A DNA stretch of 64,000 nucleotides from Pseudomonadota bacterium. GTDB taxonomy: Bacteria; Myxococcota_A; Polyangia; JAAYKL01. The stretch covers positions 254,343-318,342 of the forward strand of contig JALNZK010000002.1 of assembly GCA_023229365.1 (NCBI GenBank), written 5' to 3'. Below the pieces are notes generated by a model. That model worked only from the letters and a program-made list of their open reading frames with translations, ran no database searches and was not told the DNA's origin. The translations under genes were made by a program, and so were the position numbers. The first letter of the stretch is position 1. Each line of letters begins with the position of its first letter. Below, one piece after another: positions 3-39,267 of the stretch.

Positions 3-1028
3 TTGAAAGACTGCATCAAGGCTCTAGACTGGGTATTTGAAACCGCACATGCCCACAACATAGATAATATCTGTTTTTTGGGAGATTTATTTCATAGTCG
101 CCAAAAAATCGGTGTCAGTGTCTATCAATGGACTTTTGAAGTTTTCAGCAAATGGATGCAAAATAAAAAGAGTTGGCCGAATGTTTATTTGTTGGTTGGC
201 AACCATGATATGGTGCATAAATTCACAACAGACGTTTGCAGCATTAAGCCATTAAATGTTATTGATGGTGTTGTTGTTGTAGACAAACCCGTTGTGCTTC
301 AAATTGACGAACATTCCGTTGCTTTTTTACCTTATACGGAAAATCCTCTTGAATCCTTGGGAATTTTGAAAGATGCTCCCAAGGATTTGTTACTAGGGCA
401 CATTGCTTTAGACGGGGCTATTTTAAATTCGCTGCATCAAACACATTCAGAAGTTGTGGTTGAACATGATGGCGACATGACTGTGGTGGATGCTGATGTT
501 TTCAAAGATTGGAAACAAGTGTTTTTAGGACATTATCATGGCGAACAAAAAGTAAGGGCAAATGTTGAATATGTTGGATCGCCACTTCAATTGAGCTTTG
601 GAGAGACCAAACAGGACAAGCATCTAATCATATATGATCTGGACACGCATGAGAAGGAATATGTGATAAATGATTTTAGTCCCAAACATTTTATTATCTC
701 TCAAGAGGATATCGGCAAATTCGATTTGACAAATAATTTTGTAAGAATTATTGTGGATGATATTTCGTCCGCTGAGTTAATAGAATTTCGCAACGATGTA
801 CTATCCAAGAATGTTGGCAGTTTAGACATCCGACAAAAACCCAAGAAAGAGGAAGATGGAGAAGCTGTAGATGTGGCCTTGGCAGCAGTATTGCAAAATG
901 ACTTGGTAATAGAAAAATACGTGGAATACAAGGATGAATTTGATGAATTAAATGGACTTGATAAAGTCGAATTATTATCAATAGGCAATAAAATTATTGA
1001 AACGGCAACTAATCAAATCAATCAATGA
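3..1028 (+). CDS. sbcD: SbcD/Mre11-family DNA repair exonuclease (T4 gp47-like), 5'-truncated at window edge
   Basis: Calcineurin-like phosphoesterase motifs GDLFH (motif II) and GNHD (motif III) plus later GHYH. Motif I (DxH) is missing, so the N-terminus lies upstream of the window. Sits immediately upstream of, and 4 nt overlapping with, an SbcC/Rad50-like gene. Confidence 0.8.
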   Translation: MKDCIKALDWVFETAHAHNIDNICFLGDLFHSRQKIGVSVYQWTFEVFSKWMQNKKSWPNVYLLVGNHDMVHKFTTDVCSIKPLNVIDGVVVVDKPVVLQIDEHSVAFLPYTENPLESLGILKDAPKDLLLGHIALDGAILNSLHQTHSEVVVEHDGDMTVVDADVFKDWKQVFLGHYHGEQKVRANVEYVGSPLQLSFGETKQDKHLIIYDLDTHEKEYVINDFSPKHFIISQEDIGKFDLTNNFVRIIVDDISSAELIEFRNDVLSKNVGSLDIRQKPKKEEDGEAVDVALAAVLQNDLVIEKYVEYKDEFDELNGLDKVELLSIGNKIIETATNQINQ

Positions 1029-3043
1029 AAAACCTAAAATTTAAATATTTCTCAGCTAAAAATTTCGTTTGCTTCGGTCCAGAAGGTATTGAAATTGATC
1101 TCACGAAAAAGGGGAATGTTATCCTTGTTCGTGGAGAAAATCTGGATGTTATAGATGAAGAAGAGAAGGAAGGTGACGAGCGAGTTGCTTCTAATGGCAT
1201 AGGCAAAAGCACCATCCCCGATATTCTTGTCTATGGCCTCTTCGGCAAACCTCTCAAACATCCCTCTAAGATCAAGCATGAGGATGTAATCAATAATCGC
1301 ATTCGTAAAGATATGCGAATAGAAGTTCGTTGGGATGACTACAGAGTAGTTAGACAACGAAGCCCAAATAAGCTGCGTTTTTGGCAAAGCAGCAATGAAG
1401 ATTGGAACAAAGATACGGAACTAACTTTGGGCGGCATGCCAGATACACAGAATTTGATTGAGCAACATTTGGGATTAAATTATGAGACATTCCTAAATCT
1501 TATGGTATTTGCCGACCAAGGGCATTGCACTTTCTTGGAATGCACCAATCCTCAAAAACGAACGGTTGTTGAGGATTTAATGGCTTTGCAAGTTTTTCGC
1601 ATTTATTCAGATGTCGCTAAAGAAGAGAAAAACAACTTAAAGAATAAAATAAAGCTACTAGCATCAGAATACGAGCACAGCATATATGAGTTAAAGTCTG
1701 CTCGGGAACGTATTGATGAAATTAACCAAGAGGAAAAATCCTGGCGGGATGGCAGAAACAAAGAATTAATTGCTCTTCAAAATGTGCGTTCATCGAAGCA
1801 ATCACTGTTGGAGTCTTCCGATATCGGAGCAGCATTAGCCAAATACGAAAATGCTCAAAAAACAATCCAAGAGACAAATGATAAAATCGTTGATTTAGAT
1901 GCAAAAATTGCCGAAATTCGCACACAACTGCCCCAAGTGGAAGAAAAGGTAAACTCAAGGAAACAGGAGCGAGGTCAATTAGATCAACAAATTCTTGTAT
2001 TGCGAAACAAAATCATTACTGCCAATAATGAAATTAAAAGCAAAGAAAAAATTCTCAAGGTCAAAGATCGCAAAGGGCAAGTTTGCAGCGAATGTTTTAG
2101 CGTTGTGGATGAAGCTAATTATTTAACTTTTGTGGACAATGCTCAAAAAAGTGTTGATGAAAATGAAAAATTAATTGCAGAAAACAATGTTGTATTAGAG
2201 CAATTGAATAAAGAATTGGCTGAAATCAAAGAAAAGATCACCAAGGGCACCAATCTTATTGCTACTAAGCAAGCTCAAGAAAGACAATTATCCTCTTCGA
2301 TAGATAATTCCCGAAAAGAAATTCAAAAGCTTACAGCAATTCAAAAACCGACAGCCAACGATCAAGAGCAAGTTTTATTAACCGAGATTACAGAAATCGA
2401 TAAACAGATTGTTGACAAAACGCAGCAAATAAATGGACCCTCGCCTTATGTAAGTCTGCATACATCTGCGGAGGAAGATGCCAAGAAAAAAGAGACAGAA
2501 AGCGAAGTAAAGAAGGCAGAATTACAAAAGGTAGAGTCGCTTTTGCCTTATTACGAATGGTGGGCCGATGGCTTTGGACCAAAAGGCATTCCGAAGTTTG
2601 CTATTAACCACATCATTTCTCCGTTAAACACTCAAATTGCACATTGGCTAGAGTTTTTAATCAATGGTAAGATTAAATTGTTGTTTAATAATGAGTTAGA
2701 AGAATCTATTGAACGCAATCCATCTGATGGTGATCCTTTTGTGTATTATCAGATGTCAGGAGGAGAAAAAAGACGGCTAAATTTAGCAGTTTCACAGGCG
2801 TTTGCTTATATTATGTCGCATAGTTCTAAAGCATCTCCTTCAGTTGTTTTTCTGGATGAAGTTACAACTAATATTGACCCAATGGGCGTTGTTGGTGTAT
2901 ACAATATGATTATAGAATTGGCAAAAGATAAGCAAGTTTTTGTTACAACACACGATCAAGGATTGCAAGAATTGCTGCAAGGTTGTGAGACATTGTATCT
3001 TAGGAAAAAGGACGGATTCACAACTGTAATTAATAAAAATTAG
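1025..3043 (+). CDS. sbcC: SbcC/Rad50-family ATPase (T4 gp46-like recombination/repair)
   Basis: N-terminal P-loop-like NGIGKSTI, long central coiled coil with a CSEC zinc-hook-like motif, ABC signature MSGGEKRRLNLAVSQA, Walker B VVFLDEVTTNID. Paired with sbcD. Confidence 0.85.
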   Translation: MKNLKFKYFSAKNFVCFGPEGIEIDLTKKGNVILVRGENLDVIDEEEKEGDERVASNGIGKSTIPDILVYGLFGKPLKHPSKIKHEDVINNRIRKDMRIEVRWDDYRVVRQRSPNKLRFWQSSNEDWNKDTELTLGGMPDTQNLIEQHLGLNYETFLNLMVFADQGHCTFLECTNPQKRTVVEDLMALQVFRIYSDVAKEEKNNLKNKIKLLASEYEHSIYELKSARERIDEINQEEKSWRDGRNKELIALQNVRSSKQSLLESSDIGAALAKYENAQKTIQETNDKIVDLDAKIAEIRTQLPQVEEKVNSRKQERGQLDQQILVLRNKIITANNEIKSKEKILKVKDRKGQVCSECFSVVDEANYLTFVDNAQKSVDENEKLIAENNVVLEQLNKELAEIKEKITKGTNLIATKQAQERQLSSSIDNSRKEIQKLTAIQKPTANDQEQVLLTEITEIDKQIVDKTQQINGPSPYVSLHTSAEEDAKKKETESEVKKAELQKVESLLPYYEWWADGFGPKGIPKFAINHIISPLNTQIAHWLEFLINGKIKLLFNNELEESIERNPSDGDPFVYYQMSGGEKRRLNLAVSQAFAYIMSHSSKASPSVVFLDEVTTNIDPMGVVGVYNMIIELAKDKQVFVTTHDQGLQELLQGCETLYLRKKDGFTTVINKN

Positions 3044-5729: not shown

Positions 5730-6035
5730 ATGAAGAAAAACAAATCGCCAGATCATTGCCCCATCTGTGGGCAATATATGGAAGTAATCTGTTCTGGGTT
5801 TCAGCGGCACCCTTTTGTGGATGGTCGATGTTATGAAAACATTTGCCACATATGTTTTTCTGCTCCTTGCACCTGTCGTTTTGACGAAGGTGTGATGTGG
5901 AAACATTATGATTATGAGGATCAAGAACTGCATACCGCTGAGGAAATGATGCGGTTTGGGTTCACAAAAGCCGAAGTAGCCATTTCCTTAAAAGCAGTAA
6001 AATTGGCTATAAAAAATGGTAAGCACCCTAAATAG
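5730..6035 (+). CDS. Cys-rich small zinc-binding protein (hypothetical)
   Basis: CPICGQ...C...C...C...CTC cysteine pattern. Starts directly after the RNR stop. Confidence 0.4.
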   Translation: MKKNKSPDHCPICGQYMEVICSGFQRHPFVDGRCYENICHICFSAPCTCRFDEGVMWKHYDYEDQELHTAEEMMRFGFTKAEVAISLKAVKLAIKNGKHPK

Positions 6036-6038
6036 GGT

Positions 6039-7031
6039 ATGGATTTTAAGGGCTTTTTACTGAGCGAAATGATGGTTCATCGCCTTGGGGGAGAGCCATA
6101 TAGAAATTTTATTGCTTTTCGAGGGCATCTATGGCTATTTGATGATGAGCCAACACAAAAAGAAGCCAAAGCCATTAACCGCATTATTCTCAAAGAACAT
6201 CCTCAACACAAAGAATTAAAAGAAAAGCACAGGAAATTCGGCAAGTATTCATTTGATATTCAGGATTGGGTAAGAGAAAATATCCAAGATGCTTTTGTGG
6301 GAAGTTGGGATGCTAAAACAAAAATTATTTGGACTGGCGAAGATTCGATCAGTCCAGTGACTTCTCCATTAGTCAAAAAGGTTGTAGCTGCACTGAAAGC
6401 CAAATCTGTACAATTTGAAACCAATCAATCGTTCTCAAAAGAACAAGATGTGCCATCTTATCAAAGACAGGACAACACAAGCTATTGGGATCGCACTGAA
6501 ATTTATCGTCGCAAAGATATCTTAGGACAAATTCCAGAAACTGCATTTCATGGCACTTCTACCAAATATTTGCCTGATATTCTGAAATGGGGGCTAATGC
6601 CTGGACAAGCTGAGTCTAATTATGGGGACATTATGCATGAGGATAAGATATTTTTGGCATTCAAGTTCTCAGAAGCAGAATCACATGCTACGCATACAGG
6701 TGGTCGCACTAAAAACTATCCGGTTGTAATTCAAGTCAAAATACCCGATAGAGCCCGATTGTTGCCTGATTATGATGCTGATAAATCAACATCCACACCC
6801 ACCTATCCAGATTTTGTTGGCGGCAAACCGAATACATATTCTTCGGTTAGTCCAATGAAAGCTAGTAAACATCAAGGAGTTGTCGGATACAAAGGTCGTA
6901 TCCCAGCCAATTTCATCGAAGCTGTATATCTAAGAATGGGGAATAATTGGAAAAAAGTCAAATTAGATACTCTTAGAAAGAGGGTTGCAGAAGACCCTTG
7001 GGAATGGCAATATAAATACGGATTTGAATAG
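6039..7031 (+). CDS. Candidate ADP-ribosyltransferase-fold protein (Tpt1/KptA-like H-H-h / H-Y-E clade) with capsid-targeting-like N-terminal leader
   Basis: FHGTSTKYLPDILKWGLMPG resembles E. coli KptA LYHGTASRFLDEIKKQGL. IFLAFKFSEAE...PVVIQVKI resembles KptA VHLSADEATA...PVILTVKA. N-terminus MDFKGFLLSE matches the CTS-like leader with an L-x-E site. Confidence 0.5.
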   Translation: MDFKGFLLSEMMVHRLGGEPYRNFIAFRGHLWLFDDEPTQKEAKAINRIILKEHPQHKELKEKHRKFGKYSFDIQDWVRENIQDAFVGSWDAKTKIIWTGEDSISPVTSPLVKKVVAALKAKSVQFETNQSFSKEQDVPSYQRQDNTSYWDRTEIYRRKDILGQIPETAFHGTSTKYLPDILKWGLMPGQAESNYGDIMHEDKIFLAFKFSEAESHATHTGGRTKNYPVVIQVKIPDRARLLPDYDADKSTSTPTYPDFVGGKPNTYSSVSPMKASKHQGVVGYKGRIPANFIEAVYLRMGNNWKKVKLDTLRKRVAEDPWEWQYKYGFE

Positions 7032-7039
7032 GACAATTT

Positions 7040-7525
7040 ATGGAATTTAAATATTTTATTTTAAATGAAGGCAGGGCTTATCTGGGCATACGTTTGGGGG
7101 ACATTCTCAATGCAACTCAGGATTTAGAGCAAAATGCCAAAAGTATGGGCTCTCGTCAACTTGTCAGTAATGCTGAGGGCATTGTAAATCAAATTCGCAG
7201 AGTGTTACACACCCATTGGGATAAGCAGGAAGAAGAGTCCCTCAAAAAGTTGCAAAAGGCAGCAGTAGCTTTAGCCAGAGCTATCGAAGAAAAAGATGAT
7301 CTCTTAAACACGATTACATCGGTTAAGGGAGAGCTTGAGGAATTAGTGGGTGATTTAGGGCAGCCAATTGGGGAACTAGGCAAGCCAGAAGGCGGCAAAG
7401 AAGCCAAAGAACAAGAAGAAACGCCACAGCCTCAGCCTCAGCAAACTCAACAGCCAGGACCGCCACCAGCAGGACCACCGCAGCCTCAACAGCCGTCACC
7501 CCAAATGCCTGGGCAACCTCAATAA
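7040..7525 (+). CDS. Hypothetical CTS-leader protein with coiled coil and P/Q-rich low-complexity tail (candidate internal head protein)
   Basis: N-terminus MEFKYFILNE (leader motif plus L-x-E). C-terminal PQPQPQQTQQPGPPPAGPPQPQQPSPQ. Confidence 0.5.
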   Translation: MEFKYFILNEGRAYLGIRLGDILNATQDLEQNAKSMGSRQLVSNAEGIVNQIRRVLHTHWDKQEEESLKKLQKAAVALARAIEEKDDLLNTITSVKGELEELVGDLGQPIGELGKPEGGKEAKEQEETPQPQPQQTQQPGPPPAGPPQPQQPSPQMPGQPQ

Positions 7526-7583
7526 TCTATTTACTTTATTGTTTGTTTTTGCTAAGATGATGGAAATATAAGGAGATTTTATC

Positions 7584-8744
7584 ATTTGTGGCATAGTGGG
7601 ATTTATAGGCAAGAGCAAAGACCCAACAGCGTCCTACGATTTAGCAACTCAATTGTTTCTTAAAACAGAGAGTCGTGGCGAGGATGCCACTGGTATTTGG
7701 GGAACTGAACCTGGGAATGGTAAAATTATTTACCATAAAGAGCCGGTAAAAGTAAAAGAATTTGTTACTGGTGATATGTGGAAAAGGGTCAGAAAACTAA
7801 ACCCTGATTTGCTATTGATGCATGCCAGGGCCGCTTCTTCAGGTGTTGGCAGCCCCAAAGTCAACAAAAACAACCATCCATTCGTTAGCAAAGATTGCAC
7901 AACGGCACTCATTCACAATGGAAGAATACCAGATGTGGAATATGGACAATTAAAGAAACAATATGCTGTAGAATCTGATTGCGATTCAGAGATGTTTTTG
8001 CGGGTATTTGAACATGGATCAGGAATGGCACATGGCATTCAAGATATATGGTCCTATATGCATCGTAGTCATATGGCCATTGCTATTGGCGAACGAATAG
8101 CACAAAGCCGTAGATTGTGGCTTTTCCGCAACACTCATCGGCCACTTTGGCTGACAGATATGCGAAGTACATTGGGACAAATATTTTTCTTCTCCGATCC
8201 CGACATTTGGGATGAAGCAACAGCCGCTTGCAAAAATGTTTGGAATTACTTAGGAAAAATAAAATTATTTAATTTGACAACAGAGATGATATGGTGTTTT
8301 AATTCAGACGCCAAAGGTCAAATAAATTTACAGAAGTTTAAAATTTGTGTTAAAGATAACACTCCTTGGCAAACAAAAAAAGAAAAACTTGAAATTAGGC
8401 TCAAAGGCCCAGACTCGAAGGTTGAAATCATAACTGGATTAAATGAAAAAGACGAATTGCCCGAGAAACAAAAGCCTGTGGTAGTTGCACCATTCTCTCA
8501 TGCTTATCAAGATGAAGAGGGGCTCTTTACCGACACATCTGACAATAAGAAAAACCTAGAAAAGCTTAGCGAACAAATTAAAGCAATTGAGCTATTACTT
8601 AATGATGTTTCAACTGCCACGGAAAACCTTGTGTGGGAAAATACGATAGATGGGGATGATTTTTTAGAATTATTTACGTCTTTATCTAATGTCGATATGG
8701 AGTTGCAAGGGACTTTGCGATTGTTAGAAGATGGTAAACGATAA
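7584..8744 (+). CDS. Class-II (Ntn) glutamine amidotransferase domain protein; start probably non-AUG (AUU/AUC) to include the nucleophile Cys
   Basis: Reading upstream of the annotated GTG (7596) in frame gives I-I-C-G-I-V-G-F-I-G, the classic MCGIVG N-terminus. ESRGEDATGIWG resembles the GATase-II RG(x)D(A)xGI motif. HARAASSG...NNHPF...LIHNGRIPD resembles RxATxG...QPF...HNGxIxN. SD AAGGAG at 7570-7575 sits 5-8 nt from ATC (7581) / ATT (7584) but 20 nt from the GTG. The ORF track gives 7596..8744. Confidence 0.7.
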   Translation: MCGIVGFIGKSKDPTASYDLATQLFLKTESRGEDATGIWGTEPGNGKIIYHKEPVKVKEFVTGDMWKRVRKLNPDLLLMHARAASSGVGSPKVNKNNHPFVSKDCTTALIHNGRIPDVEYGQLKKQYAVESDCDSEMFLRVFEHGSGMAHGIQDIWSYMHRSHMAIAIGERIAQSRRLWLFRNTHRPLWLTDMRSTLGQIFFFSDPDIWDEATAACKNVWNYLGKIKLFNLTTEMIWCFNSDAKGQINLQKFKICVKDNTPWQTKKEKLEIRLKGPDSKVEIITGLNEKDELPEKQKPVVVAPFSHAYQDEEGLFTDTSDNKKNLEKLSEQIKAIELLLNDVSTATENLVWENTIDGDDFLELFTSLSNVDMELQGTLRLLEDGKR

Positions 8745-8764
8745 TTCATTTACTATATTAGTGA

Positions 8765-9358
8765 ATGAGTGAATTTAATGATGATTTAGATGTTGAAGAT
8801 GTATTAAAAGAAAAGCCCAAAAAAATAAAATCTGGGGCCAAAGGCAAGGCGGCAGAAAGAGATATCTGTCACATTCTTAATAAACGTTTTGCCAACATTC
8901 TGTTAGCACACCCATCTTGGGGAACGTTTTCCAGAAGCGTGGGTTCTGGCAATCGTTGGGGACAGGGAGTGATGTTATCAGAGCAGGCAAAGAATGTTTA
9001 TGCTTCTGATATTTGTTGCCCCGAGCATTTTTTGTTCGTGATTGAGAGCAAAAAAGGCTACAATGAGATCGATTTATGCACTTGCTTTAGTGGCAAATGT
9101 CCAGGCTTGGATACCTTTTTGCAACAGGTGTTAGATGATTCCTTGAGAGTGAATCGTAAACCCTTGTTGATTTGGAAGAAGGATCGCAAGCCAGCCATTG
9201 CATTTATACGAGAGCCTATGACATGGGCTGGCCCCAATTGGCCGGAAGAATTTCAAGCAACAGCGGATATGTTTTACACAGGCGTTGGCGGTTGGTCGGC
9301 ATTGCCATTTACGGAATTGTTGACTTCAACCCCAGATACGTTTTGGTTTTCAACATGA
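8765..9358 (+). CDS. Hjc-like PD-(D/E)xK nuclease (putative Holliday-junction resolvase / endonuclease)
   Basis: KGKAAERDICHILNKRF..SVGSG...ASDICC...FVIESKKG parallels archaeal Hjc G.AxERxL...G(F)...SG...D(I)xA...IExK. Confidence 0.45.
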   Translation: MSEFNDDLDVEDVLKEKPKKIKSGAKGKAAERDICHILNKRFANILLAHPSWGTFSRSVGSGNRWGQGVMLSEQAKNVYASDICCPEHFLFVIESKKGYNEIDLCTCFSGKCPGLDTFLQQVLDDSLRVNRKPLLIWKKDRKPAIAFIREPMTWAGPNWPEEFQATADMFYTGVGGWSALPFTELLTSTPDTFWFST

Positions 9359-10080
9359 GGCTTCTTGTGTAAGGCTTTCCAGTGATGAGCGGCAGCCACT
9401 GCCATTAAACACCATTCATCATCTTGTAGATCAGATGTGAGAAAATCTGCCATAATCTGAGCATCATTCTTTTTTAGATTTTCTATTTCATCATTGGGTT
9501 TGAAGTGCGTGTCTATTTTTGCCGCCAGTGTTGCTACTTTTTGCACTTCTTTATTTTTTTTGGCTGCCCAAGGTTGAGGCAAACCAGCCTCTTTGGCAGC
9601 CTTTCTTTGAGCCCTCATGCTCACGGCTGGTCCAGTATAATCATCATTCCAGTCAAACACATCTTGTTTTACATTTCTCAATTCGCTGAGAGTTCGTCGT
9701 CCTTCACAATGAGCCCGAGCAGCACAAACGGCTTTGTTGTAGAAAGTTGGGAAAGACGGACCAGGATGGTTGAGAAATTTCCACAAAAGATGGGCTGGAT
9801 CATCCTGTCCCTGAAATTTACATTCCTTCATGACAGACAGAAATTCTTTTGCCTTATCTGCCCCGTATTTGATAGCACATTTGCAAGCTACTGCCCCCAA
9901 TGCAGCACTATAAGTACCGTCCGGGCTCCCAGGCAAGCACTTGGTGATTTCTGCTGCCAATGCCTCGAAACGATCATAGAATTCCGCACGTTTTTCAGCA
10001 GGAAGCTGAACTTCTGCCTTGCCTCTATTGCCAATGCCTTTCAGCATTTGATTGCAAACTCGCTCGATGAATTCATTCAT
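9274..10080 (-). CDS. Hypothetical protein
   Basis: Long ORF in the minus-strand block. No recognisable motifs. Confidence 0.4.
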   Translation of the reverse strand: MNEFIERVCNQMLKGIGNRGKAEVQLPAEKRAEFYDRFEALAAEITKCLPGSPDGTYSAALGAVACKCAIKYGADKAKEFLSVMKECKFQGQDDPAHLLWKFLNHPGPSFPTFYNKAVCAARAHCEGRRTLSELRNVKQDVFDWNDDYTGPAVSMRAQRKAAKEAGLPQPWAAKKNKEVQKVATLAAKIDTHFKPNDEIENLKKNDAQIMADFLTSDLQDDEWCLMAVAAAHHWKALHKKPHVENQNVSGVEVNNSVNGNADQPPTPV

Positions 10081-14054: not shown

Positions 14055-15119
14055 TTACTCCTCCTCGTTCTCCATCTTGTTCCCCTTCTTCCGTTTGCGT
14101 GGGAAGAAAAAATCTGCTTCAAGTGGCAAATCAATGGTGAATTCTTCCAAACACCCAGGACAGTAAATATCTACACTGGTATCCACACCAAATGGCGGCT
14201 CGGCAATAGTATTGCGGATATGAGCCACATCATTGATATGCATTTCCTTTAACAACTGCAAGATTTCTCTTTTCTCTGTGCAGCCGCCCAAATTCTCTAC
14301 CAACAAAGAGCTACGATAAAGCAATGTATCGTCTGTGCCCGTGGTATTTTTTCCTTTGCGTTCCCTGTAGTCCTGCACTCTTTGTTCATCTTCTCCTCTA
14401 GACAAACGATATGTGAAAGGAATGCTTGTTTGCGGCGTTTGATCCTTGAGTGAATTTGCATCAAAATCGGCTGGACAGGCATCTACGTACAAACCATTTA
14501 GATCGATAACATGTCCAAAACGTCGATCACAACCGGGGCATTTTACTTCTACGTCATATTGCGGCGTATAAGAGATACCACGCAGGTAAATGAGCAAATA
14601 GGTGCGGTCTTCAGTCAAAAATTTCTCGGCATCATAATCCTCTTGTATACAGTGATTGAAGATCATGTTCATGGCTTTGCCCTTTTTGACAAATCGGCTT
14701 GTGGCCAGAATTTCTTCTTCTTGTCCTGTCATGGGTCTAATGTGTAGTTTTCCATTTCTTGGGCCATCTGTACCATCGTAGAATTTGCCTTTTGAAGGAA
14801 GTTCGATTTCTTCAAAGGTTGCTTTGGATTGCTTGATTCTGGCCCGCATTTGTTGAAAGGCGTCACCACCATCAAGAGGCTCTTCAGACATGGCTTCTGG
14901 CCTTCTTTGCGGACCCTTTAGTTGCTGGTCCAGAATTTTCTGGGCAAAGGGAGGGATTTTCCCCGTAATCGGCAATTGTGCTGGACTGGCTGGCGATGTT
15001 TCCAACTCTTCTTCAACTGCTCTACGCACCTGGGAAATTTCATTCAGTGCATTTTGATCTGATTTGATCTCATCTGGACTTATTGGTTTACGTTGTGGTC
15101 TAAAAGCTTCTTCTGGCAT
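14055..15119 (-). CDS. Hypothetical protein with CxxC...CxxC zinc-ribbon elements
   Basis: CPGCDRR and CPGCLEE pairs. 354 aa. Confidence 0.4.
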   Translation of the reverse strand: MPEEAFRPQRKPISPDEIKSDQNALNEISQVRRAVEEELETSPASPAQLPITGKIPPFAQKILDQQLKGPQRRPEAMSEEPLDGGDAFQQMRARIKQSKATFEEIELPSKGKFYDGTDGPRNGKLHIRPMTGQEEEILATSRFVKKGKAMNMIFNHCIQEDYDAEKFLTEDRTYLLIYLRGISYTPQYDVEVKCPGCDRRFGHVIDLNGLYVDACPADFDANSLKDQTPQTSIPFTYRLSRGEDEQRVQDYRERKGKNTTGTDDTLLYRSSLLVENLGGCTEKREILQLLKEMHINDVAHIRNTIAEPPFGVDTSVDIYCPGCLEEFTIDLPLEADFFFPRKRKKGNKMENEEE

Positions 15120-20348: not shown

Positions 20349-22709
20349 TTATGTATAGGGTTGTTCGGTATTTTCGGTCCAGCTACCAGTACGATGGATG
20401 CTGAATTCAATAAACATAAATTCGACTGCCTTAACCGGCTGTACACCGATCTTCGCACGGAATTCATTGCGGTCAACTACATCTGGGGTGTTGATGTCCC
20501 AGCCGCATTCTATGATATAATCATATAGACCTCTGCCAATTTTAATTTGTTCCAAGATACCCGAAGCTAAGGTGATGAATTTCTTGTGGAATTCATCATC
20601 ATGGGGATCGAACAACATAAGTTTGGACTGTGATCTGATTTGTTTTTCAATAACAAACATCAGGCGGCGAACATTAACCCGATCCAATGCTGTTGGGGAA
20701 CGTTGCATCGTTTTTTGTCCCCATACCACAAAGTTCTGCAAGTCGTTGAATTGAACGACAGGATTGATGCAGTTTCTGTTTCCATACATTGCATCTCTTT
20801 CCGCCAATGTCGGACGACTGAATACGTCAGTGATATTGGGAACGATACCACGAGTCGCACCAGCGGGAGCAAACCACGGCTCTGTCAAGAAATCGTTCCT
20901 GGCATAAACTGCCATGATGCTTCCAGATGGCGGTATCCATACGTCTACGTGATTGTAAGTATCACGCAGTTTCAACCACGGCCAGTAAAGTGCCAAGAAG
21001 TCTGAATTGAAACGAGTGCCGTTCAATGGATGTGTACCATTTTGCCAAGCAATGATTTCATTGACAGTGAGACCAAATGGCGGGTCTACAATTCCCATGC
21101 AGTCCATTCGATAGTTTTGGCACAAATCAATCATTGCTTCAACGATATCTGTGGAACTACGACCAGGAACAGCGACCATATCAATGTCAATTTGTTCTGG
21201 TTCGGATACGGCGAACATTCCCGTGTATCCCAAAGCACTACCAATCAACAGTGTGTCTTGATCTACTGGATCGGCAGGAATACCATCCGAGCCACCAGAC
21301 AAGGTATACACACCATCTAAAGGCGATGCATGATTTGTTGCGTCATCTGTAACCCTAACGAAATCTGAAACCAGTGACAAATAGCTTTCTACATAAAAAC
21401 GACTGGTTTGATCTTTGGTAAGATTACCCCATGCCTCTACTTCGACGCCATTGTTGTAAACCATCATGGAGAACACGCCTTCTCGAATATCGTTTACAAT
21501 TTCAACTGTGGTTTCGTTGCCTTCGATACCCGGCGAATCGGCTTGTAATGTGAAAGTATAAGTTCCAGGTGTTGCTGTTCCACCAACAACCTTGCCATAG
21601 GTATAAACAGCGGCATCACCACTCACACCCTCTGGTTCGCAATTGCCAACTGCATAGCAACCACGATGGGTGCTGTTGTCTAGTCCAAACATGGATGCAG
21701 TGCTGTCGGATTTGACCAACAAGCGGGCATCAATGCCTTTGTGCAAAGTAGTTAAAGTTAAATTGCTTCCGCTTGCAGACGCTTCAAATCCGCCAGGAAT
21801 TGTACCGGCTGTAATTTGATCGTTGATTTCAGTTACAACGTCAGCAGTAGTAATAGGCTGTGACAATAGTTCTAAGGCCGATAAATCTATTGTTTGCACC
21901 ACATTATCAATTAGCACACTATCTGTGCCATCGATGACAACTTGCAAATTAAGATTAGTTACGCCAGTAAGATTCCATGTGCCAGCAGCAGTGTATCCAT
22001 CATCTGGATATTTGGCCAACAAACCTGTTAGCGTTGCTTCGACCATATCTGTGCCGATACCCATCACAGTATACGCATCATTCAGAACAGATAACAATTC
22101 TAAACTAGAGTCTGGACCATAAGCCCAAATAGTTCTTAGTCCAATTTTGTCGCCAGTGCCGACAAAGAATTCAATGCCATCATATGTGGCATCTAATTGT
22201 TCGTTGAGCAATGCAACCAATTCAGTGCATGTATAAGTGCCGTGCAACACAAACAATGTTTTGGATGCATCAACACCATTGAGCGACCATTTGAAAAAAT
22301 AGTCATTCGGACCAGCAAAAACATAGTCACCAGCGGTGTTAGATTGTATAACAATCTGAGTACCTGCTGCATCAACTCCTATTTCGGCGGTTGCTGCATA
22401 TTCATCACTCACTTGGTCTTGATCTCCTACACGCACAATATAAAGCTCGTTAGCAACGGTTAAATATTGTTCGGCAGCATAGATCAAGTAAGGATCGCCC
22501 ACATCAGGATGTGGGTAACCAAAAGTTCTATGAAGCGTATTGTAGTCTGTTACCAATGTGGGTTGGTTGATTGGACCTTTGCTAGCAAATCCTATCAAAG
22601 CAGCCCTATGAAACGTCTGCTCGGTAGCGATAAAACTAAGGTCTTGCTCTGTAATTCGCACGCTTGGCGAAATTGTATTGCTTGGCGGAAATCCCCTTAA
22701 AATCGGCAT
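20349..22709 (-). CDS. Contractile tail sheath protein (T4 gp18-like)
   Basis: N-terminal AALIGFASKGPINQPTLVTDYNTLHRTFGYP...YLTVANELYIVRVGD parallels gp18 AALAGKFQWGP...VNTFGQP...FLQYGNDLRVVRAVD. 786 aa. Confidence 0.85.
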   Translation of the reverse strand: MPILRGFPPSNTISPSVRITEQDLSFIATEQTFHRAALIGFASKGPINQPTLVTDYNTLHRTFGYPHPDVGDPYLIYAAEQYLTVANELYIVRVGDQDQVSDEYAATAEIGVDAAGTQIVIQSNTAGDYVFAGPNDYFFKWSLNGVDASKTLFVLHGTYTCTELVALLNEQLDATYDGIEFFVGTGDKIGLRTIWAYGPDSSLELLSVLNDAYTVMGIGTDMVEATLTGLLAKYPDDGYTAAGTWNLTGVTNLNLQVVIDGTDSVLIDNVVQTIDLSALELLSQPITTADVVTEINDQITAGTIPGGFEASASGSNLTLTTLHKGIDARLLVKSDSTASMFGLDNSTHRGCYAVGNCEPEGVSGDAAVYTYGKVVGGTATPGTYTFTLQADSPGIEGNETTVEIVNDIREGVFSMMVYNNGVEVEAWGNLTKDQTSRFYVESYLSLVSDFVRVTDDATNHASPLDGVYTLSGGSDGIPADPVDQDTLLIGSALGYTGMFAVSEPEQIDIDMVAVPGRSSTDIVEAMIDLCQNYRMDCMGIVDPPFGLTVNEIIAWQNGTHPLNGTRFNSDFLALYWPWLKLRDTYNHVDVWIPPSGSIMAVYARNDFLTEPWFAPAGATRGIVPNITDVFSRPTLAERDAMYGNRNCINPVVQFNDLQNFVVWGQKTMQRSPTALDRVNVRRLMFVIEKQIRSQSKLMLFDPHDDEFHKKFITLASGILEQIKIGRGLYDYIIECGWDINTPDVVDRNEFRAKIGVQPVKAVEFMFIEFSIHRTGSWTENTEQPYT

Positions 22710-38094: not shown

Positions 38095-39267
38095 CTAAGC
38101 ATCCAAAGGTGTTCCATAATGTGTCCATCGGGCCACTCGCAAAGCGTCTTTGTCACCAACAGCTTTTCCGCCGTCTTCGCTCAGTTTCACTACGGGAATG
38201 CCGTTTAGAGCCCACATTTTGATAACCATATTCAATGGTTTTAAATCGCCATCAAAATCATTGGTGAAATGAGTGCCAATGCCAAAGCTGCATCGGATGC
38301 CCAATTCATCACAATAATGCTTGATTTCTACTGCTTTATCAGCATTTAAATTATCTGAAAAAATCAGCGTCTTGGTGGCTGGATCGATTTTCAGACCTTG
38401 GTAATGTGCAACCAATTGATCGGTAAACTTGAATGGACAACCACTATCATGCCGTGCTCCATCCCACAGGCGTGCATGAAATGGTCCGAAATCTTCCAAA
38501 AAAGACTTCAGCCCATAGGTGTCGGTAAGCACAATCCCAAGCTGAGCATTGTATACTTTCACCCAAGCATCCATCGCTGCCAGATTAGCATGACGCAAGC
38601 TGCCCAAAACACTGTGGGCTTGAACCCACTCATGAGCCTGAGTGCCTATTGGCTTTGTTTTGTATTTCATCGCAAAATAGGGATTACTGGTGCCGACAAA
38701 AAAGCCTTTGGTGTTTTTGCAAAATTCTTCAACCACCAAACCCTGGGCATCAGCACTTCGTCTTCGACGGGTGCCAAAATCAGCAAAATGACACCGCTCA
38801 GATTCCAAAATAGCCAATTTATTTTGGGCTCTTTCTCGTTGTCCATTGTAATCCCAATTTTTATTATGGAAATACAATTCACTTATCAGTGCCATCAAAG
38901 GCACTTCCCACATCACAGTACGGTGCCAAGAACCTTTAATATGAATGTGGAGTTGTCCTGATTCTTGCCAAATTTCTACTTCTTGGGGGTTGTAGCGATA
39001 ATTTCGCAAATATTCAATGTAGGCTGGCTTGACAAAAGGACAGGACTGTTGCAACCAAGTGGCTTCCTGACCAGACAAAGACAGTGCGGGCATATATTGA
39101 ATGGATCGTCGTAATGTTTCAGCAAATGCTTCATCAAAAGTATCGCTGGGACGACGATTGAAAAATCTATATTCAGCCCGTGCAGAAGGATACAATTCCA
39201 GTATCGCCTGCTGCATTGTCAGTTTATAGAGATCGGTGTCTAAGATAGATGGCAAATTCATTATCAT
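38095..39267 (-). CDS. pncB: Nicotinate/nicotinamide phosphoribosyltransferase (PncB-like)
   Basis: N-terminal ILDTDLYKLTM (PncB LDTDxYKxTM). GTSN and FGIGTHF motifs. About 390 aa. Confidence 0.7.
   Translation of the reverse strand: MIMNLPSILDTDLYKLTMQQAILELYPSARAEYRFFNRRPSDTFDEAFAETLRRSIQYMPALSLSGQEATWLQQSCPFVKPAYIEYLRNYRYNPQEVEIWQESGQLHIHIKGSWHRTVMWEVPLMALISELYFHNKNWDYNGQRERAQNKLAILESERCHFADFGTRRRRSADAQGLVVEEFCKNTKGFFVGTSNPYFAMKYKTKPIGTQAHEWVQAHSVLGSLRHANLAAMDAWVKVYNAQLGIVLTDTYGLKSFLEDFGPFHARLWDGARHDSGCPFKFTDQLVAHYQGLKIDPATKTLIFSDNLNADKAVEIKHYCDELGIRCSFGIGTHFTNDFDGDLKPLNMVIKMWALNGIPVVKLSEDGGKAVGDKDALRVARWTHYGTPLDA

Follow-up and report, generated by a model that had tools for sequence, protein, structure and literature searches.

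In a stretch of 64,000 nucleotides of phage DNA (the window, by which we mean the whole of this stretch), we have found a gene on the forward strand (7584–8744) that probably encodes a stand-alone glutaminase, or gamma-glutamyl-amide hydrolase, of the N-terminal nucleophile (Ntn) class, and that appears to be initiated at an AUU codon behind a strong Shine-Dalgarno (SD) sequence, with low and controlled initiation; we give this reading a probability of about 0.85. Comparison of the DNA of many related loci lends strong support to a rare AUU/AUC start by which the nucleophile Cys would be exposed; actual initiation at AUU, removal of the Met, glutaminase activity and low expression as a selected outcome are our inferences.

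Start site of the window gene

From position 7569 the window reads TAA GGA GAT TTT ATC (7581–7583) ATT (7584–7586) TGT (7587–7589) GGC ATA GTG (7596–7598) GGA TTT ATA GGC, and the in-frame translation after the TAA at 7569–7571 is G-D-F-I-I-C-G-I-V-G-F-I-G. Both the mechanical list of open reading frames (ORFs) and the public annotation place the gene start at GTG 7596, with the stop codon at 8742–8744, and the public protein (P0001) is called 'hypothetical protein'. An earlier note, made from the letters of this DNA alone, had pointed to the in-frame ICGIVGFIG upstream of the called GTG, and the sequence is as it described; its distances were also right, the spacing from the AAGGAG at 7570–7575 being 5 nucleotides (nt) for ATC, 8 for ATT and 20 for GTG. 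Between the TAA at 7569 and the Cys codon at 7587 the window sequence contains no ATG, GTG, TTG or CTG. The SD of the window gene (−9.3 kcal/mol) is stronger than that of any ATG-started family member and belongs to the top 9% or so of the window genes. The leader is less structured than its shuffled versions (z = +1.4), and an Rfam search of 6900–9400, in which glutamine riboswitches were included, gave no match at E ≤ 1.

The note had proposed a rare AUU/AUC start exposing the Cys. This proposal is strongly supported by the census, the missing alternative starts, the strong SD and the conservation in a close relative, all described below, and we have narrowed it to ATT 7584 on the basis of the spacing from GGAG, the register of the family and the specificity of Met aminopeptidase. 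The distance from GGAG is 8 nt for the window ATT, as against 7 nt in members of the GGAGGTG-N4-ATT type and 8 nt in the homologue L036, and it is 5 nt for the window ATC. Met aminopeptidase trims fMet-Cys and does not trim fMet-Ile. Together with cases in which a stop codon stands at codon −2, the family register points to ATT 7584, in preference to ATC 7581, as the probable start.

Census of the codon before Cys

Among the 120 best homologues as annotated, 93 begin with MCG, two with VCG and one with LCG; the others are truncated or carry a short upstream extension with Ile, Leu or Val right before the Cys, and the first of these truncated or extended cases checked at the DNA level all had ATT directly before the Cys codon. 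For a census that does not depend on the annotated start, loci on viral contigs were gathered by two start-independent peptide patterns, [PA]xxNxNNHPF and RGxDA[SAT]GxW[GA]; a pattern with the initiator Met (MCGIxG) was left out, its matches being swamped by GlmS/PurF-like genes. At the 79 loci thus collected, the codon before Cys was ATG in 44, ATT in 20, GTG in 7, TTG in 5 and ATC in 3, and no other codon was found there. When copies more than 95% identical were collapsed, 58 unbiased clusters were obtained (ATG 32, ATT 14, GTG 6, ATC 3 and TTG 3), in which the share of AUU/AUC is 29%. Because 93 of the 120 homologues have MCG and five start-type codons account for 79 of 79 loci, the match of ICG to this N-terminus is not due to chance; the probability that all 17 non-canonical cases would be AUU/AUC among the 58 other sense codons is about (2/58)^17.

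The 17 unbiased lineages and 4 hand-picked ones, the window included, make up 21 distinct AUU/AUC lineages, on which the following comparisons are based. In 16 of the 21, no canonical start lies between Cys and the in-frame stop that precedes it, and in 8 this stop stands at codon −2 (two codons before the start codon and three before Cys), which for the family excludes a propeptide as well as a start farther upstream. The next downstream canonical start is 19–139 codons off in every AUU/AUC lineage except the window, and use of such a start would destroy the Ntn domain. Of the distinct starts, 18 are ATT, 3 are ATC and none is ATA; since ATG to ATA is a transition, the absence of ATA hints at selection among AUH codons (AUU, AUC and AUA). 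In five lineages, including that of the window, a second ATT/ATC codon is present immediately upstream.

Strength of the Shine-Dalgarno sequence

We calculated SD energies for the duplex of the 22 nt upstream of the start with the anti-SD GAUCACCUCCUUA. The mean energy was −5.2 kcal/mol for ATG starts (n = 32), −8.2 for GTG (n = 6), −8.9 for TTG (n = 3) and −11.8 for AUU/AUC (n = 21), and thus SD strength rises in the order ATG < GTG < TTG < AUU/AUC; the difference between AUU/AUC and ATG is significant at p = 1.8e-9 (Mann-Whitney). The motif GGTG within 12 nt of the start was found in 19 of the 21 AUU/AUC members and in 0 of the 32 ATG members, and it nearly always ends at −5 (GGAGGTG-N4-ATT). 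The GTG within the GGTGA motif was considered as a start and rejected, as it occupies −7 to −5 and is out of frame.

The SDs of neighbouring genes are no stronger at AUU/AUC loci (−3.9) than at ATG loci (−4.5), indicating that the strong SD is specific to this gene and is not an effect of the host or of the whole genome; a host-wide preference for strong SDs was therefore rejected as the cause. In three neighbouring gene families that are themselves conserved, the conserved N-terminus begins at a canonical start without exception, and we found no other gene in the window that needs an AUU/AUC start. When 426 kb were scanned blindly for an SD followed by ATT and a long ORF lacking a canonical start, 14 matches were obtained, 12 of which were the glutaminase gene itself. 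Within the sequence examined, namely the window, the three neighbouring families and the 426-kb scan, AUU/AUC initiation as a general habit of these phages was thus rejected.

Translational coupling was considered as well. In about half of the AUU/AUC loci (no formal tally) an upstream stop is 3–19 nt away, and the gap is 58 nt in the window and long in others; coupling was therefore rejected as a universal cause. A basal clade with ATG starts (L075, L077, L080, L082, L084 and L086; start at 2501) has no SD, and at several of its loci the upstream stop overlaps or abuts the start, e.g., TAATG; this arrangement suggests that translational coupling may take the place of SD-driven initiation there.

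Evolution of the start codon

The closest relative for which DNA is available (L167, assembled from a separate run, SRR22315509) is 74% identical to the window gene in protein and 64% identical at synonymous third positions, while 25 nt around the SD and ATT, AAATATAAGGAGATTTTATCATTTG, are identical in the two. The codons ATC ATT TG are kept in this relative, and the GTG at +4 is not, ACT being found in its place. Two more distant relatives are ATG-started: one has the SD AAAGGA (L170), and the other has no SD and is near-leaderless, as a promoter-like TTGACC-17-TATAAT ends 8 nt before its ATG (L168). Hence at least three initiation architectures are seen for one gene within this subclade.

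On a neighbour-joining tree, at least 11 changes between AUU/AUC and canonical starts are needed, as against a mean of 17.8 and a minimum of 12 in 1000 shuffles of the labels; there are fewer changes than in the shuffles, yet at least 11, and the start state is therefore heritable but has been switched many times. In one clade ATT persists at a mutual identity of only 55–73%. Two sisters that are 90% identical differ in both features, one having ATT with GGTG (L024) and the other ATG without GGTG (L043). Every one of the 21 AUU/AUC lineages has an intact ORF and the invariant catalytic residues, and these members are thus not pseudogenes.

The protein

Several lines of evidence place the protein among class II glutaminases. 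Pfam assigns GATase_6 (1.3e-8) and PHROGs a GlmS-like N-terminal family, whereas the NCBIfam models glmS, purF and asnB match the first 145–190 residues or so only, far below their cut-offs. A profile built from the 62 family representatives matches the PDB chains of PurF and GlmS from residue 1. In the alignment of these representatives C2, R31, G32, H80, R82, N112, G113 and D134 are invariant; R82, N112-G113 and D134 align with the PurF motifs HxR, HNG and DSE (Arg73, Asn101-Gly102 and Asp127 of PurF). The catalytic and glutamine-binding residues are invariant alike in AUU/AUC and canonical members, and glutaminase activity is expected to depend on Cys1, the first residue after Met removal.

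The AlphaFold model (predicted local distance difference test, pLDDT, 91.8) has the four-layer alpha-beta-beta-alpha Ntn fold in residues 1–255, and Foldseek relates it to PurF, GlmS and EgtC with probability 1.00 (E 1e-12 to 2e-9), to GFAT, and, with some 20% identity, to a large number of phage 'Gn_AT_II' proteins that are uncharacterised. The Ntn domain is followed by a partly disordered linker (pLDDT below 50 at residues 300–309) and a C-terminal helical hairpin, in which neither Pfam nor NCBIfam recognises a domain. No fused synthase, i.e., ammonia acceptor, domain was found by Pfam, by NCBIfam or in the AlphaFold model, and a hidden one, sought in the longer homologues (470–760 residues), was absent there too. 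The view of the earlier note that the gene encodes an orphan glutaminase is accordingly upheld. The note had stated that the C-terminal 180 residues have no synthetase domain; the absence stands and the length does not, because the Ntn domain extends to about residue 255 and leaves a tail of about 130. On these domain searches and the model, 'stand-alone orphan glutaminase/amidohydrolase' appears to be a fair description, although a partner encoded by another gene is conceivable.

Alternative explanations

The GTG at 7596 was chosen as the start by NCBI and by other gene callers, being a canonical codon that opens a near full-length ORF, and its product, which has no Cys, would be a non-catalytic pseudo-enzyme or a scaffold. 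We regard this as very unlikely: the GTG is far from the SD and has none of its own, it is lost in the closest relative while ATT and SD are conserved, and the I-C-G-I just upstream of it matches the invariant N-terminus of the family. Such a start would delete the nucleophile Cys and half of beta-strand 1, though all other catalytic residues are invariant, and the remoteness of the next canonical start in the other AUU/AUC lineages speaks against it as well. A start at ATC 7581 would give fMet-Ile-Cys, a propeptide of two residues that would have to be removed autocatalytically as in PurF of Bacillus subtilis. Its spacing from AAGGAG is acceptable, ATC serves as the start in three lineages of the family, the pair ATC-ATT is conserved in the closest relative, and B. 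subtilis PurF is indeed made with a propeptide; this variant is nevertheless very improbable, as the stop at codon −2 in eight lineages shows that the family does not need a propeptide, a start-type codon always stands directly before Cys, and the ATT fits the 7–8 nt distance from GGAG in other AUU/AUC members better than the ATC does.

That the ATT is a decayed ATG, the gene of the window phage being silenced or a young pseudogene, also has little to recommend it, even though ATG to ATT is a single-base change and the closest homologues P0002, L168 and L170 have canonical starts. The ORF of 386 codons is intact with all catalytic residues present, and ATT together with the SD is conserved across 26% protein divergence; one clade has kept ATT at identities as low as 55%. 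The specifically strengthened SDs of AUU/AUC members would be senseless for dead genes, and decay would hardly yield ATT and ATC as the only non-canonical codons before Cys. An error of sequencing or assembly at 7586, the true codon being ATG, is extremely unlikely, although a single base of a metagenome-assembled contig is at stake. The note had named such an error as a possible refutation and it was looked for: run SRR18595299, assembled independently in Logan (L003), gives the same sequence at every base of this region, so that the layout of the start site is not an assembly error, L167 has the same ATC ATT TG in a different run, and the same feature recurs in more than 20 other lineages.

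Some points weigh against initiation at ATT 7584 as we read it. The window, unlike most of its relatives, has a canonical GTG only 4 codons downstream, and a truncated product is conceivable. Its SD, TAAGGAG with an 8-nt spacer, is unlike the GGTG-N4 type of 19 of the 21 AUU/AUC relatives. The SD energies assume the common anti-SD, and that of the host may differ; the neighbour-joining tree behind the count of switches is rough.

Comparison with known systems

Initiation at AUU, AUC or AUA is established for infC and pcnB, as in Escherichia coli. In Staphylococcus aureus, cvfC1, ccpN and infC have AUU/AUA starts, in each case behind an extended SD, and their output is about 10% of that from AUG (PMC13009471); in reporters with AUH starts, the output is about 5–10% of that of AUG (PMC13009471, PMC5499595). 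The AUU/AUC start of infC is the target of autoregulation by initiation factor 3 (IF3) (PMC5499595). The glutaminase gene resembles infC, pcnB and cvfC1 in having a conserved AUH codon and a strong or extended SD that would offset the weak codon-anticodon pairing, and the features by which such genes are recognised, i.e., an AUH codon with no usable canonical start, a strong SD and phylogenetic conservation, are seen in the window gene. It differs from them in being phage-borne, in the toggling of AUU/AUC with ATG, GTG and TTG, with the SD tracking the changes, and in that a catalytic residue at the N-terminus, and not experiment, indicates where translation would start. Unlike in infC, no logic of IF3 autoregulation is evident.

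With PurF, GlmS and AsnB the protein shares the MCGI(A/V)G N-terminus, Cys1, the conserved Arg, Asn-Gly and Asp, and the four-layer Ntn fold, whereas it has only a linker and a helical hairpin in place of a fused synthase or acceptor domain, and its family has an invariant NxNNHPF motif of its own. In being a single Ntn domain without a synthase it resembles EgtC (4zfl, E 2e-9), to YafJ-like GATase_4 proteins and to phage 'Gn_AT_II domain' proteins; Pfam GATase_4 itself does not match the window protein and matches some homologues weakly, and the architecture is single-domain. The C-terminal hairpin and the conserved gene order with a PDDEXK_15 gene and a gene for a Pro/Gln-rich protein are specific to the glutaminase family. 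Like B. subtilis PurF and the other Ntn hydrolases that are made with a propeptide, the enzyme needs a free N-terminal nucleophile; unlike for these, a propeptide is not possible in the window, which has no canonical start upstream of the Cys.

We found no relevant prior description in the literature of AUU starts in amidotransferases or in huge phages. While the mechanism itself is known, the phage setting, the recurrence, the graded co-variation of SD and start codon, and the internal evidence that the catalytic Cys gives for the start are new.

Proposed mechanism and meaning

We suppose that the 30S subunit is brought to AUU 7584 by the strong SD, UAAGGAG, which precedes this codon by 8 nt in a leader without structure, and that the initiator tRNA would insert fMet there. 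Deformylase and methionine aminopeptidase would then remove the fMet, since Cys is permitted next to Met, and the exposed Cys1 could form the catalytic centre with its free amino group and thiol. The combination of a weak start codon with a strong SD would result in a low, controlled rate of initiation. Relatives start this gene in other ways: at an AUG behind a weak SD, at a start that overlaps the stop of the gene before it, or almost without a leader.

The expression appears to be held low, and this suggests that the activity is dose-sensitive; such sensitivity to the dose of a free glutaminase may plausibly be why AUU is so frequent in this gene. A further idea, which we offer tentatively and consider rather less probable than its opposite, is that AUU/AUC with an extended SD is a selected, gene-specific device of huge phages that ties a potentially harmful free glutaminase to the initiation state of the host. 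If this is true, the inputs might be IF3 occupancy, guanosine tetraphosphate (ppGpp), temperature or the stage of infection, and the family would be a natural sentinel for non-canonical initiation missed by gene callers in uncultured phages. The co-variation of SD and start codon is equally compatible with simple tuning of the expression level and with regulation by IF3, a possibility raised in the earlier note and suggested by infC of E. coli.

The finding matters for annotation, because every AUU/AUC member that we have seen in public protein sets is mis-called, either by truncation, with loss of the Cys and up to 139 codons, or by extension, a TTG or GTG that lies within the SD being taken as the start, and the enzymes consequently look inactive or odd. 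As the mature N-terminus must be Cys, the family pins its start codon without experiment, and start-codon and SD strength can be followed as they co-evolve in one gene across dozens of phage lineages. A widespread, uncharacterised and phage-restricted stand-alone Ntn glutaminase has at the same time been identified.

Features, neighbouring genes and phage setting

The features of the glutaminase locus are listed in Table 1. The tentative promoter in it matches the consensus at 8 of 12 positions and is below the threshold of our scan, and is listed as tentative for this reason; in the consensus scan of the region for promoters and terminators, sites were no commoner than in shuffled sequences. 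At every position, however, it lines up with the TTGACC-17-TATAAT of L168 and L170 and the TTTACT-17-TAAAAT of L167, and the promoter-like elements of these relatives are found at about 1460–1500 (L168), 700–745 (L170) and 30–60 (L167) of their contigs.

Table 1. Features in and around the glutaminase gene (positions in the window)
Feature	Position	Strand	Remarks
Helical protein with Pro/Gln-rich tail (control gene)	7040..7525	+	Upstream in 55/62 loci; canonical start always
Tentative promoter, −35 TTTACT (7530–7535), 17-nt spacer, TGc and −10 TAAGAT (7553–7558)	7530..7558	+	Putative
TAA stop, in frame	7569..7571	+	Ends the frame 5 codons before ATT and 6 before the Cys codon
Shine-Dalgarno TAAGGAG	7569..7575	+	−9.3 kcal/mol with anti-SD; identical in L167; unstructured region
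ATC, less likely alternative start, probably spacer	7581..7583	+	5 nt from SD; family register favours the next codon
ATT, putative initiation codon	7584..7586	+	Directly 5' of the Cys codon; conserved in L167
Corrected coding sequence, 386 codons and stop	7584..8744	+	Intact full-length ORF
Ntn glutaminase domain (class II, PurF/GlmS-type), residues 1–255	7584..8348	+	Pfam, PDB profile, AlphaFold, Foldseek
TGT, Cys1, predicted N-terminal nucleophile after Met removal	7587..7589	+	Invariant in 62/62 representatives; aligns with Cys1 of PurF and GlmS
GTG, start of ORF caller and public annotation, probably not the start	7596..7598	+	20 nt from SD; ACT in L167
C-terminal helical hairpin, residues 321–385	8544..8738	+	AlphaFold helices 321–351 and 357–385
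PDDEXK_15 nuclease-like protein	8765..9358	+	PF24608 at 1.1e-16; adjacent in 58/62 loci; canonical start in all

The gene order common to the loci is CTP synthase (40/62), the Pro/Gln-rich helical protein immediately upstream (55/62), the glutaminase and the PDDEXK_15 gene (58/62). In the window there is no CTP synthase at this place, and a ribonucleotide reductase, a small Zn-ribbon-like ORF and a PARP-like gene precede instead. The small ORF (5730–6035, forward strand; 101 residues) is Cys-rich (CPICG...C), directly follows the ribonucleotide reductase and recurs upstream in 8 of 62 loci. The PARP-like gene (6039–7031, forward strand) encodes a protein of 330 residues with a weak PARP/ADP-ribosyltransferase-like Pfam match (E 0.0076), and the same weak match is given by the syntenic gene in L168 and L169.

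The whole of the window, positions 1–64000, is DNA of a huge phage of the myovirus type, with genes for a tail sheath, a baseplate hub and an SbcC-like nuclease (e.g., 20349–22709 and 14055–15119 on the reverse strand and 1025–3043 on the forward strand). Also encoded are a clamp-loader-like protein, a class II ribonucleotide reductase and a product like nicotinamide phosphoribosyltransferase (NAMPT). The 340-kb source contig has nevertheless been deposited as a metagenome-assembled genome (MAG) of a 'Proteobacteria bacterium'. Homologues of the glutaminase are carried by viral contigs, the largest of which measures 527 kb. Neither megablast of 6000–10000 of the window nor tblastn of the glutaminase gave a match among 50,697 cultured phage records; the family is known only from uncultured contigs. 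When 185,579 species genomes were scanned, one glutaminase match was obtained, with a TTG start, on a 546-kb contig in a 'Bacteriovoracaceae' MAG, and this contig is probably another phage. The NAMPT-like gene of the window (38095–39267, reverse strand; phrog_448, 1.2e-17) may possibly function in the salvage of nicotinamide adenine dinucleotide (NAD) or in anti-defence.

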